Below the pieces are notes generated by a model. The model was not told the origin of the DNA. It ran no database searches and saw only the letters and a program-made list of their open reading frames with translations. From positions 49,587-113,586 of IMG/VR virus record IMGVR_UViG_3300035701_000008: a stretch of 64,000 nt of DNA. One strand, given 5' to 3'. The stretch comes from a virus. The translations under genes were made by a program, and so were the position numbers. This document shows, in pieces, positions 2,705-53,023 of the stretch. The number at the start of each line of letters is the position of its first letter. The stretch's first letter is position 1.

Positions 2705-2730
2705 AAAAAAGCCCCAGATTTCTCTAGGGC
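2705..2730 (-). terminator. intrinsic terminator
   Basis: Minus strand GCCCTAGA-GAAA-TCTGGGGC followed by TTTTTT. Confidence 0.85.
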
Positions 2731-2764
2731 CTTCCCAACAATTAAAAAACAGAAACAGAACTCT

Positions 2765-2941
2765 TTACTCACTTGTTCTAAGTGTTGTATTTCCTTTCTC
2801 ACGTTTATCAAATGGACAATGTCTACAATTATTATTACAACATTGTTTCTTTGTCTTTAATAGATACTCTTTAGTGAAATGGACTCTTCCATCTTCTAAA
2901 TAATAATCTACATGTTCTACAAAATCTTTTCCATCACTCAT
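2765..2941 (-). CDS. DUF5522-like Cys-rich small protein, 58 aa, not in ORF track
   Basis: MSDGKDFVEHVDYYLEDGRVHFTKEYLLKTKKQCCNNNCRHCPF...; DYYLE.G...CC...CRHCP pattern. Confidence 0.7.
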   Translation of the reverse strand: MSDGKDFVEHVDYYLEDGRVHFTKEYLLKTKKQCCNNNCRHCPFDKREKGNTTLRTSE

Positions 2942-3218
2942 CTCTATTCATTTTAGATTCATAAATGTAATATGTAATAATAGTTGGTTTAGCTCTAGAT
3001 TTTTCTATAGCTTTTTCATAGAACAATTCAACCATTCCTTTTCTTTCTCTAAGTTTGTCTACTTGAAAACTACTATATAAACCAAGTTTATTACCATTTG
3101 TTTTAACTTTTTTTATTTTTGAATTTGTTAATTTACTTCTTGCAGCTTCTTTAGTTATATTAAACATTTCTGCAATTTGTTCAACAGTGTAAAAAGTGTC
3201 TTTTTCAAATTTTGCCAT
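2934..3218 (-). CDS. HTH DNA-binding protein
   Basis: YTVEQIAEMFNITKEAARSKL resembles an excisionase/MerR-type HTH. Confidence 0.6.
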   Translation of the reverse strand: MAKFEKDTFYTVEQIAEMFNITKEAARSKLTNSKIKKVKTNGNKLGLYSSFQVDKLRERKGMVELFYEKAIEKSRAKPTIITYYIYESKMNRDE

Positions 3219-3444
3219 TATTATACTGTTTTATAAGTTCTCTTTCATCCTCAAATGCATATCTGTATTTGACATCTTTGTATTCTTCCATTATAAAAGG
3301 ATTCTGTAGCTTTCTCCAGAAGTTCTTATCATCTTTTGTTTCTACAGCAAGAATGATGTGACTATCGTTATATCCACAAACATATCCTTTATATTTTGGA
3401 TGTACAACTAACATGTTTTTAAACTGGTTGAATACTTTTTCCAT
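3205..3444 (-). CDS. hypothetical protein
   Basis: Coupled overlaps with neighbouring ORFs. Confidence 0.55.
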   Translation of the reverse strand: MEKVFNQFKNMLVVHPKYKGYVCGYNDSHIILAVETKDDKNFWRKLQNPFIMEEYKDVKYRYAFEDERELIKQYNNGKI

Positions 3445-3757
3445 CTTTGTCTAAGTTAAGACTAGCAAGTCTATTTTCTAATTCATATTCCACCTTTAGA
3501 ATGAAGTTGATTTTCTCTTCAAGCTCTTGATCAATAATCCTACCTACAAAAGGCATTAAGTCATAAAGATTTGTATACACTCTAGCCATTCCATATTTGG
3601 TTTTTATTTGACTAAATTGAAATCCTGGAATCTTTATAAGATCATTGAATATCTGATCTACATATGCAAGTACAGAAGGTTCATGAATGTCCATTCCATA
3701 ATGGTCTTCTTCAATATACTGTTTATACTTCTCGTTAAATTCTTCTGTTGTTCTCAT
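3419..3757 (-). CDS. hypothetical phage protein, probable start MRTT at 3757
   Basis: FSQIKTKYGMARVY resembles the common phage QIKEKFG.LR.Y motif; TATATTTG promoter at 3779-3786. Confidence 0.6.
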   Translation of the reverse strand: MRTTEEFNEKYKQYIEEDHYGMDIHEPSVLAYVDQIFNDLIKIPGFQFSQIKTKYGMARVYTNLYDLMPFVGRIIDQELEEKINFILKVEYELENRLASLNLDKDGKSIQPV

Positions 3758-3806
3758 GTTTTTTAAATTATAGGGAGACAAATATACATCATCTCCCTGA
3801 TTATTC

Positions 3807-4100
3807 CTAATTAATTTTCATCCATTTACCATTCCACACTGATTTTTCATCAAGTATCCATTCTCCTTTACATCCTCTAAGATTAACTGGAAAAGGTCTT
3901 AATCTTTCAGCTGTAGTTCTAGACCATCCATAGTTACCATCACTTATATATAGGCCATCATCTTCTTGTTTAGCAATAGCTCTACCATGTAAGTACATAG
4001 TTATTACACCATCATTGAATCTAACTTCTGTATTTCTACATTTGAATCTTTTTCTGGCATTAAATGCATCATGTGCATCACTCGTTATCTGTCTCATCAA
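3807..4100 (-). CDS. hypothetical protein
   Basis: MYLHGRAIAK...GWSRTTAERL. Confidence 0.6.
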   Translation of the reverse strand: MMRQITSDAHDAFNARKRFKCRNTEVRFNDGVITMYLHGRAIAKQEDDGLYISDGNYGWSRTTAERLRPFPVNLRGCKGEWILDEKSVWNGKWMKIN

Positions 4101-4512
4101 TAAGTTCTTTAGGTGTTAATTTATTTTCTAACATTTCAAATGCAGCTTCTACAGCAAATAGCTCTGCTTCTTTTCTTGTAGAATATGGAGTAGATGGTGT
4201 ATCATCTAAACTTTCTAATGTATCTATTCCTATTAAAAATTTCATTTTAGGAACATGAGGTTCTATTACAGAATGTATAGGAACAATATGTACATATAAT
4301 CCATTCTCATCAAATACATCTAATAACATTCTAGGATTAACATCAATCAATGTTCCTATCTTATCATCATCTACACCTTGCTCAAGCATAAAATCTTTAA
4401 ATTCACTTGGCACTGATTCATCTTTAAATGAGTTAATCATTTCTTTTAGAAACCAATCTTTAACCACCTTTCCTGCTAGTGGATACTTCTCTATTAATTC
4501 AAGTCCTTTCAT
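4078..4512 (-). CDS. hypothetical protein
   Basis: C-terminal YSTRKEAE..AVEAAFEMLE. Confidence 0.6.
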   Translation of the reverse strand: MKGLELIEKYPLAGKVVKDWFLKEMINSFKDESVPSEFKDFMLEQGVDDDKIGTLIDVNPRMLLDVFDENGLYVHIVPIHSVIEPHVPKMKFLIGIDTLESLDDTPSTPYSTRKEAELFAVEAAFEMLENKLTPKELIDETDNE

Positions 4513-51135: not shown

Positions 51136-51138
51136 ATT

Positions 51139-51474
51139 ATGTGTAATAACTCTGAAATAAATAATATAACAATAACAGGAACAAGTGCTGTCTCATATGA
51201 TAGCACTCCACTTCCTTGTACAAATATAAAAACTTGTGATGGGTTAAATACAATTCTTACTAAGTTAGATGATGTATTATGTTCTGCTATAGCTAATGTA
51301 GAAACACTTAAAGATAATGTAATAAACATCACTGAGGACTTAATGATTATAGGAGAAGAGATAATTAGTATTGATAATCAACTATTTACATGTTGTCCAA
51401 TATGTAATTTTACAGGAACTGCTAATCAAATTCTAGTATGCACATTTACTGGACAAGCTAATCAGCTTCCATAA
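51139..51474 (+). CDS. Cys-rich coiled-coil virion protein, paralog of the previous gene
   Basis: VSYDS.PLPC..I.TCD.LN.IL.KLD. Confidence 0.7.
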   Translation: MCNNSEINNITITGTSAVSYDSTPLPCTNIKTCDGLNTILTKLDDVLCSAIANVETLKDNVINITEDLMIIGEEIISIDNQLFTCCPICNFTGTANQILVCTFTGQANQLP

Positions 51475-51501
51475 TAAAACCAATAATTAAATTTAAAACT
51501 A

Positions 51502-52248
51502 ATGACAGTATTAATAACATTAACAACAGCTGGAATTGATTCAGGTCCATTTGATCTATATTCAGATCTTGATGGTTATTTATCAGCATTTGCAACAGGA
51601 GTAACTAGATCAGCATTACTTGCTGGATATTCTTCTTCAGTGGTACCTGATTATACAACTACTATAAGAGTGGTTTCTGTAGGAGATTGTACAAACTTTA
51701 TTGATATATATTTATCTGGTACAGGTATAACCACAACAACAACAACCACTGTTGTAAATCCTTGTAATATTTATACAGTAGGTCAAGCAACGTTAGGTGG
51801 AATAATTGCTTACATTTTACAACCAGGAGATCCAGGATATGATGCAAATGTTTGTCATGGACTTGTTGCAACAGCTAATGACATTAACCTATCACCTTGG
51901 GGATGTGATGGTACATTAATTTTAGGAGCTAATGGAACAACAATAGGAACAGGAAGCTTAAACACTACTCAGATAGTAAGTGGATGTCCTACACCAGGTA
52001 TAGCAGCAGAGTATAGTATAAATTTAATTCAAGGTGGATATAATGATTGGTATCTCCCAAGTATTGGTGAATTAAATAAATTGTATTTAAATAGATTTCT
52101 TATTGGTGGGTTTAATTTAACTGCATCATATTGGAGTTCTAGTCAAAGCGGAAATTTCTTTGCAAAATCTAAAAACTTTAACAATTCACTTGCTCAAGAT
52201 ACAAGCAAAACTGTAACTCTTTATAGTCGTCCTATAAGATCTTTTTAA
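51502..52248 (+). CDS. adaptor domain, Thr linker and DUF1566-like domain
   Basis: GGIIAYI, HGLVA, IG.G..NT..I, GGYNDWYLPS..EL..LY, YWSSS, RPIRSF. Confidence 0.8.
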   Translation: MTVLITLTTAGIDSGPFDLYSDLDGYLSAFATGVTRSALLAGYSSSVVPDYTTTIRVVSVGDCTNFIDIYLSGTGITTTTTTTVVNPCNIYTVGQATLGGIIAYILQPGDPGYDANVCHGLVATANDINLSPWGCDGTLILGANGTTIGTGSLNTTQIVSGCPTPGIAAEYSINLIQGGYNDWYLPSIGELNKLYLNRFLIGGFNLTASYWSSSQSGNFFAKSKNFNNSLAQDTSKTVTLYSRPIRSF

Positions 52249-52272
52249 TAATAAAAATATAATAAATAAATT

Positions 52273-52947
52273 ATGACAGCATTAATAACATTAGTTATAC
52301 CAGTTGGTGGGGATGCAGGTCCTTTCAACCTTTTTTCAGATGCAACTGGATATGCAACAGCATTTGAAACAAATGTGGCTGCATCACTTTTAACAGCTGG
52401 ATATACCACTTCTCTTGTTCCTAATGGAACAACTATAATTAGAGTGGTGTCTACAGGTGCATGTACAAATTTTATTAATATACCAGTTAATTTAATTCCA
52501 ACTACCACCACTACAAGTAGTAGTTCTACAAGTACATCAACTAGTACATCAACTAGTACTAGTACATCAACCAGTACTTCTACAAGCACTAGCACTAGCA
52601 CTTCTACAAGTACAAGCACTTCTACAAGCACTTCTACTAGTACAAGTTCTACTACCACCACATCTACAACTACTCCACCAATTACAACAACTACCACTAC
52701 ACATACAACTGCTCCTCCAGGACCTGTTACTATTAATTTAAGTAATGCTTCTAGTGGTTGTCCTGCTCCTGTAAGTAGTTATCCTATTGCAGTAACTTTA
52801 GATGGTTATCCTATTGTAGTTGGTTCTGTTTTATCTGGTGGATTACCTCCTGCTGGACTTTCTTATTATACAAGTCCTACTTTTGGACTTATCTTTGATG
52901 CATTTGGAGTAGTAACAACAATAATCAATTGTGGTCCTCCACCATGA
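52273..52947 (+). CDS. adaptor domain, long Ser-Thr linker and small C-terminal domain
   Basis: N-terminus is paralogous to 51502; about 20 ST dipeptides. Confidence 0.75.
   Translation: MTALITLVIPVGGDAGPFNLFSDATGYATAFETNVAASLLTAGYTTSLVPNGTTIIRVVSTGACTNFINIPVNLIPTTTTTSSSSTSTSTSTSTSTSTSTSTSTSTSTSTSTSTSTSTSTSTSTSSTTTTSTTTPPITTTTTTHTTAPPGPVTINLSNASSGCPAPVSSYPIAVTLDGYPIVVGSVLSGGLPPAGLSYYTSPTFGLIFDAFGVVTTIINCGPPP
52501..52710 (+). repeat. coding (Ser-Thr)n and poly-Thr low-complexity repeat
   Basis: Hexamer-period repeat using mixed AGT/AGC/TCA/TCT and ACA/ACT/ACC codons. Confidence 0.9.
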
Positions 52948-52995
52948 TTTATATAACAAATAAAAAACTCTTGTTTTGTTGGTTTTACAAGGTTT

Positions 52996-53023
52996 CTCCC
53001 TAGGCATTTGTCTGGGGAGTTTT
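52996..53023 (+). terminator. intrinsic terminator
   Basis: CTCCCTAGGC-ATTT-GTCTGGGGAG followed by TTTT. Confidence 0.85.

Follow-up and report, generated by a model that had tools for sequence, protein, structure and literature searches.

A 3′ untranslated tract beside the recA-proximal terminator of a crAss-like phage co-varies with the leader of the first early gene

The window, that is, the whole stretch of 64,000 nucleotides (nt) analysed here, covers bases 49587-113586 of the IMG/VR virus record IMGVR_UViG_3300035701_000008 and is the right 64 kb of a 113.6-kb genome (113,586 bp, 107-bp direct terminal repeats, G+C content of 32%). The subject of this work is a short tract in the 3′ untranslated region (UTR) of one of its operons, directly upstream of an intrinsic terminator, and the complementarity of this tract to the leader of the first leftward gene. 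The phage is crAss-like: a 4725-aa protein, a crAss-type terminase, a portal and major head proteins are all encoded in the record, which additionally encodes a DNA polymerase, rIIA/rIIB-like proteins and a RecA/UvsX-like protein. Genes are directed leftward across window positions 1-34052 and rightward from 34380 on. Leaders are A-rich and lack Shine-Dalgarno (SD) sequences (A = 0.74 at position -3 and 0.6-0.68 at -14 to -11), which fits a Bacteroidota host. Near-identical DNA is present in freshwater and sediment metagenomes; a search of public phage records gave no close relative. A sequence-only reading of the window had proposed that three transcription units end as stop codon, short tract and intrinsic terminator, that each tract is complementary to the A-rich, SD-less leaders of other phage genes and that later transcripts silence earlier genes in this way. 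The leader composition was borne out. All three arrangements are present as well, each with a co-oriented, G+C-rich hairpin followed by a U-run; the tract lies in the 3′UTR that shares the terminator at sites 1 and 3, and at site 2 it overlaps the stop codon. Complementarity is maintained in evolution at site 1 only. We find it credible that site 1 alone is a real selected feature, leaving one covarying pair, one open case and one probable coincidence. The partners of site 1 and their surroundings are as follows.

2737..2755, minus strand: site-1 tract, RNA UUUCUGUUUUUUAAUUGUU, in the 3′UTR of the DUF5522 open reading frame (ORF), 5 nt before the terminator stem
2704..2731, minus strand: site-1 intrinsic terminator, hairpin at 2710-2731 plus T6, -15.1 kcal/mol, upstream of the recA-like gene
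2765..2941, minus strand: 58-aa Cys-rich ORF (DUF5522; Pfam PF17653, E 2.6e-11), last gene of the tract operon
2934..3218, minus strand: 94-aa ORF in the same operon as the tract, with a weak helix-turn-helix (HTH) match (HTH_17, E 0.0055, under the Pfam cut-off)
1458..2555, minus strand: recA/UvsX-like gene (357-aa ORF) with its leader (2532-2555) and a TAnnTTTA -7-like box
34055..34073, minus strand: site-1 target leader, AACAAUUAAAAAACAGAAA, ending 2 nt short of the ATG of the first leftward gene
33699..34052, minus strand: first leftward gene, 117 aa, no Pfam or PHROG match
33674..33697, minus strand: terminator right after the 117-aa gene, -12.8 kcal/mol, with a T-run
34078..34112, minus strand: putative promoter and 5′-hairpin cassette of the first early gene, CCCC..TAtGTTTG..GGGG-loop-CCCCC

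The DUF5522 ORF stops with TAA at 2767-2765 and is followed by a 33-nt 3′UTR. In the minimum free energy (MFE) fold the tract is single-stranded with a hairpin adjoining. The terminator was found at 72 related loci with compensatory stem changes, and pairing is preserved in all hairpin variants (GCCCTAG/CTGGGGC, GCCCTGA/TTGGGGC, GCCTCAGA/TCTGAGGC and TCCCTAAT/ATTAGGGA). An 18-nt core of the tract, TTCTGTTTTTTAATTGTT, is identical in 14 loci despite differing hairpins and upstream ORF ends, and farther relatives carry other T/G-rich tracts in the same position. At locus L027 (relative G026), an ORF resembling an HNH-type endonuclease (...HCHTTGKVRGLLCSKCN...) lies between the terminator region and recA, in the place of the tract.

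On the target side, the terminator behind the 117-aa gene makes this gene a monocistronic unit of ~0.4 kb. The gene itself occurs only in the present genome (G000), in G001 as the sole other large genome and in a few fragments. The cassette at the divergent junction consists of a C-run, a TAnnTTTG-like box and a GGGG-loop-CCCCC 5′ hairpin and is followed by the A-rich leader; it may be an immediate-early promoter. It is retained at the homologous junctions of 24 relatives while the first gene downstream swaps between lineages. The GGGG/CCCC hairpin appears in the MFE fold, and the target stretch beside it is unpaired. In most genomes the target ends 18-34 nt past the cassette, which places it 1-11 nt from the ATG in short UTRs. 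The tract-bearing operon and recA carry host-type TAnnTTT(G/A) boxes; the first leftward gene has the special cassette instead. These promoter types would fit a logic in which later transcripts silence earlier ones, as the sequence-only reading had suggested. In four relatives (G004, G008, G011 and G020), an insert of 130-680 nt separates the early cassette from the first large ORF; the inserts hold conserved stretches such as GTGCTTGCGACACATTAAA and may be structured 5′UTRs or small RNAs.

For the comparison within the genome, the 35 nt upstream of each hairpin were scored against the -30..+5 regions of 152 ORFs, using the 15 credible co-oriented terminators of the whole genome and 2000 mononucleotide shuffles per tract (30,000 over the 15 tracts). 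The site-1 tract is a perfect complement (19/19) to 34055-34073 on the minus strand; the other terminators reached 8-12 nt. The longest match in the shuffles was 17 nt, so the site-1 19-mer was never reached, and genome-wide no antisense match to a start region is longer, the runner-up having 15 nt. RNAduplex gave 20 pairs and -22.4 kcal/mol for tract and target. Mononucleotide shuffles are too lenient a control, since sense-orientation controls in the genome reach 12-14 nt and two further terminators reach 12 nt antisense via palindromic AT words; sense matches of 18-19 nt between leaders and coding sequence also arise by chance in the same genome. The partners lie 31 kb apart, with intervening terminators at 33674, 29993, 26430, 26215, 15183, 9565, 7961 and 3773. 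A programmed inversion between the 19-bp inverted repeats was rejected, as the entire early block would then lie antisense to its own promoter and a single orientation is kept in all relatives.

Relatives were collected by a scan with the RecA-like protein, which gave 582 related IMG/VR loci, 80 of which were retained for comparison. The formal covariation test covered the 27 genomes, from 12 tract lineages, in which both partners could be defined, the tract being the 32 nt before the hairpin and the 5′UTR everything between the end of the cassette and the first large ORF. The ungapped antisense score was 9.65 within genomes versus 7.16 across lineages (permutation p <= 0.002), and the RNAduplex energy was -15.05 versus -11.06 kcal/mol (p at most 0.01, with a median of 0). 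Controls in the sense (p 0.28) and the reversed orientation (p 0.51) were flat; the parallel-complement control showed a smaller excess (7.57 versus 6.87, p about 0.05). For 12 of the 27 genomes, no tract from another lineage matched the own-genome score on the UTR. The site-1 complementarity is non-random and has changed in both partners lineage by lineage, with at least eight different complementary words:

G000 and G001: AACAATTAAAAAACAGAAA
G005: T5/A5 in both partners, versus T6/A6 in G000
G007: 16/18
G009: AACAATTAAAAA-CAGAA, with a 1-nt bulge
G011: TAATTGTG against CACAATTA
G012: AATCACTAAA
G015: ATCAATCATC, with flanking G.U pairs
G017 and G018: TTCATAATCAAAA, 13 nt, with further pairing past a 3-nt bulge
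G021: AATCACAATTAA
G023: GTCATTACTCA
G027: AAATCAAAATC
G028: AACTGTCGAA

The sequence-only reading had named such covariation as a check on its proposal; it is seen at site 1, and none was found at site 2. When all ~150 leaders of a genome were compared, the first early gene was the best partner of the tract in 5 of 13 whole genomes (G000, G001, G005, G007 and G017). Conversely, the tract was the top non-self match of the first-early UTR genome-wide in G000, G001, G007 and G017. A matrix of best tract-leader scores over the 13 genomes had no excess on its within-genome diagonal. A search for the 18-mer with up to 2 mismatches gave no second copy in G002, G003 and G009; the conclusion that G009 has no target was refuted, as its leader copy is present but differs by an indel, with a small first ORF. 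An early reading, that the tract is conserved independently of its target, was overturned by the cassette-based comparison of the first 5′UTRs. Covariation via homologues of the 117-aa gene was uninformative, the contigs concerned (L084-L089 and L188-L190) being without recA or an inverted leader copy.

The leader of recA is a further candidate partner. The 11-nt word AACAATTAAAA occurs both in this leader and in the tract complement, and in the present genome the recA leader has a 14-mer in common with the first early leader. Complementarity between tract and recA leader is lineage-specific, with 14 nt in L016 and 15 nt in L082, and scores 7.5 within loci versus 6.5 across (p about 0.003), in the antisense orientation only.

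Taken together, site 1 may well be a co-evolving antisense pair, most likely one that acts in RNA. More tentatively, we propose that the 3′ end of a middle operon upstream of recA pairs with the first early leader and shuts it off, the two forming a co-evolving RNA-RNA switch. The U/G-rich tract, lying 5′ of the terminator that closes the HTH/DUF5522 operon, would face an A-rich, single-stranded stretch of the first early mRNA, which follows the 5′ hairpin and, in short leaders, adjoins the start codon. An RNA-RNA duplex of 10-20 bp would form between the first early 5′UTR and the 3′ end of the later transcript, the latter being driven by a host promoter and its end protected by the terminator. 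On an SD-less leader such a duplex could block loading of the 30S subunit or expose the mRNA to decay, and the first early gene would be shut off. In this proposal the pairing in RNA as well as its direction, effect and timing are inferred.

Several results weigh against it. Among the genome-wide matches of the UTR, the tract ranks no higher than 8th-10th in G005, G012 and G015, and there is no match in G002, G003, G004, G014 and G020, which have inserts after the cassette. G002 and G003 nevertheless carry the identical tract, and something besides pairing must keep it there. The weaker complementarity of the tract to the recA leader means that the first early leader may not be its unique partner. 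The strand asymmetry between G.U and A.C pairs had a dE of -1.3 within versus -3.1 across lineages (Mann-Whitney p 0.96); with no preference for G.U on the transcribed strands, this comparison does not distinguish RNA pairing from an inverted repeat in DNA. Finally, the four metatranscriptomes consist of assembled contigs of relatives, mostly over recA, from which no ends, strand, abundance or timing can be read.

The covariation is equally compatible with two DNA sites and with two RNAs. Both sites might be operators of one DNA-binding protein, for example the small HTH-like protein of the operon, which would bind to the first transcribed stretch behind the first early promoter and to the site before the recA-proximal terminator, the sites co-evolving with the protein; the 94-aa ORF is relevant to this explanation solely. 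The strand test gave no RNA-specific signature, the weak HTH_17 match lies in the tract operon, two genes farther upstream, and the target, at ~+10 to +35 downstream of the conserved promoter cassette, has a typical operator position. However, the HTH match is under the Pfam cut-off, the words are neither palindromic nor repeated within a site, and the 3′UTR directly before a terminator would be an odd place for the second operator. On the transcribed strand, each site has a single-stranded RNA context and an adjoining hairpin, and the copies differ by indels of 1-3 nt. These bulged copies (1 nt in G009, 3 nt in G017) favour an RNA helix over two sites of one protein, and we regard paired operators as rather improbable.

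It is unlikely, too, that the tract has no function in trans and is just a part of the recA-proximal terminator module, for instance a U-rich upstream element, an RNA-stability element or a recombination boundary, whose leader matches reflect complementary composition, shared words such as AACAATTAA and common descent. T/G-rich tracts do occupy this position family-wide, leaders are A/C-rich throughout, and the identical tract in the target-less genomes G002 and G003, the long chance matches between leaders and coding sequence and the lack of a clear antisense excess at terminators generally all point this way. Yet the excess survives cross-lineage permutation and orientation controls, which remove composition effects; G/C-rich words such as those of G028 and G023 are not of low complexity, and matches are reciprocally best in four lineages. 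The recA leader offers a third explanation, in which the tract acts in cis: in RNA that reads through the terminator, it would fold onto the recA leader 70-350 nt downstream and mask it, and recA would be translated solely from transcripts of its own promoter. The lineage-specific, antisense-only complementarity, 11-15 nt in the best cases, speaks for such an anti-leader, but the effect is small and many lineages score just 4-7 nt. In genomes of the G017 type the match of the tract is to the first early leader (13 nt), not to that of recA (5 nt), and with a 14-mer common to both leaders the recA signal may be secondary. We consider masking of recA very unlikely, and the antisense pair of tract and first early leader remains our preferred explanation.

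Small RNAs (sRNAs) that derive from 3′UTRs and share the terminator of their operon include CpxQ, SroC, DapZ, MicL and IpeX of the prophage DLP12. As in these, the putative seed of site 1 is located in the 3′UTR of an operon just upstream of the intrinsic terminator, and like CpxQ-type sRNAs it has imperfect complementarity of 10-20 nt to the translation-initiation region of an mRNA encoded elsewhere. CpxQ-type sRNAs require Hfq or ProQ and act mostly by occluding SD sequences, whereas the host type here has no SD-led initiation and no known chaperone; moreover, both partners at site 1 would be phage RNAs. The c4 RNA of P1 and P7 acts on the icd-ant leader, and the CI RNA of P4 on seqA/seqC. 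The site-1 pair would resemble them in that an RNA of the phage silences by short complementarity to a same-polarity leader elsewhere in the genome. However, c4 and CI RNAs are processed out of the very transcript on which their targets lie, and they serve the immunity of temperate elements, whereas the partners at site 1 are separated by 31 kb and at least 7 terminators in a genome of the virulent crAss-like type and have no common precursor. Silencing of SD-less mRNAs in Bacteroidota is little explored. To our knowledge, no post-transcriptional circuit is known in crAss-like phages, and the timing of their genes is understood at the level of RNA polymerase only.

In the crAss-like phage phi14:2, a virion RNA polymerase transcribes the early genes and the host RNA polymerase the middle and late genes; abundant early non-coding RNAs (ncRNAs) of unknown function are made. 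UTR-derived ncRNA candidates without assigned targets were reported for virulent Pseudomonas phages. These reports show that lytic phages, crAss-like ones included, make ncRNAs from UTRs and intergenic regions. None of those ncRNAs has an assigned target, and no covarying pair of a 3′UTR tract and a first early leader has been described among them; nor did our literature searches find a 3′UTR tract paired with a first early leader described in crAss-like phages. The pair at site 1 may add to the terminator-linked 3′UTR regulators a case in which both partners would be phage RNAs and the target an SD-less leader. With it come a concrete hypothesis and a simple comparative signature, for which thousands of genomes of uncultured phages can be screened; if true, it would represent post-transcriptional temporal control fitted to the SD-less, A-rich leaders of Bacteroidota. 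It also illustrates that complementarity within a single AT-rich phage genome is mostly noise, one out of three proposed tracts having survived the controls.

Site 2 comprises the following features.

26246..26257, minus strand: site-2 tract, GUUAUUAAGGAG, whose first 9 nt overlap the Gly-Tyr-stop of a 48-aa ORF
26215..26237, minus strand: site-2 terminator hairpin, -14.8 kcal/mol
26250..26416, minus strand: 48-aa ORF (26250-26396) with its own TCCTTAATAA leader (leader word at 26407-26416)
30460..31679, minus strand: cluster of small early genes with TCCTTAATAA leaders (copies at 30460-30469, 31438-31447 and 31670-31679)

The tract is a 12/12 complement to the leader of the gene starting at 31661, with a shuffle p of 0.005, or about 0.075 when corrected for 15 terminators. 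The 10-mer TCCTTAATAA has five copies in the window versus 0.57 expected, four of them before starts and one inverted as the tract. In 9 related genomes the motif stands 0-14 nt before 5-10 start codons each, that of the 48-aa ORF included, and the tract is kept in 9 relatives along with an invariant ...QLGY-stop end, which is conservation at the protein level. The terminator stems vary among relatives here as well. In the MFE fold of the ~215-nt unit, its own leader pairs with the 3′ tract over 12 bp. Motif, tract and 48-aa ORF are all absent from four farther genomes, and in G021, which encodes the single distant homologue of the 48-aa ORF, the 3′ end is not complementary to the leader of this ORF and no covariation was seen. 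Searches of Pfam and PHROG gave no match for the 117-aa, 48-aa, 112-aa and 224-aa proteins. Site 2 is ambiguous because of the coding constraint, the lack of variation, the borderline statistic and the complementarity to its own leader. It may be a weaker instance that works locally on its own leader or motif-wide, and the TCCTTAATAA leader family together with the tract may form a second, broader circuit. The leader word, in the form TCCTTAATAA(C), precedes many small early genes and could be the site of a translational or transcriptional regulator.

Site 3 consists of two features on the plus strand.

52975..52988, plus strand: site-3 tract, 12-nt loop of a hairpin with a 5-bp stem, in the 3′UTR of the ORF at 52273-52947
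52996..53019, plus strand: site-3 terminator hairpin, -16.9 kcal/mol

Its best matches are 9-13 nt to leaders of the AAAACCAA type, with a shuffle p of 0.096 (12 nt). The word TAAAACCAA has 6 copies versus 1.6 expected, which are three leaders, two coding positions and the inverted copy in the loop; the 224-aa gene had no homologue in 12 fetched relatives. Site 3 is probably a coincidence. In the shuffle control that the sequence-only reading had asked for, site 1 exceeded every shuffle, site 2 was borderline and site 3 lay within chance. Neither a system of three members nor a property shared by terminators in general was supported: among 199 terminator tracts from 13 genomes, antisense scores (8.95-10.5) were about those of the parallel-complement control and not above sense and reversed controls. 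Nothing in these results points to an anti-leader system linked to terminators in general.

Besides these sites, a terminator hairpin at 3773-3797 (minus strand) carries a -7-type box, TATATTTG, in its loop and 3′ arm and lies directly upstream of the next gene (start 3757), so that terminator and promoter overlap. The intergenic region between the divergent genes holds a near-palindromic A/T block, CCAAATTTTGAAAAAAAATTTTAAAAAAGTTTTGG, at 34140-34180 with GGTGGGTGGGTGGG close by (~34220-34233); similar blocks are present in relatives and may be an origin or a regulatory region. Two RNA genes were identified. A tRNA-Met (CAT) at 44516-44589 (plus strand), called by ARAGORN and Rfam, is located 3′ of the major head protein gene. 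A phage transfer-messenger RNA at 26679-27003 (minus strand) matched the full-length Rfam model RF00023 (83.8 bits, E 5e-31); it was also called by ARAGORN, with the tag ANMNRVFSLIREEVAVAA, and is followed by a terminator at 26430-26455.

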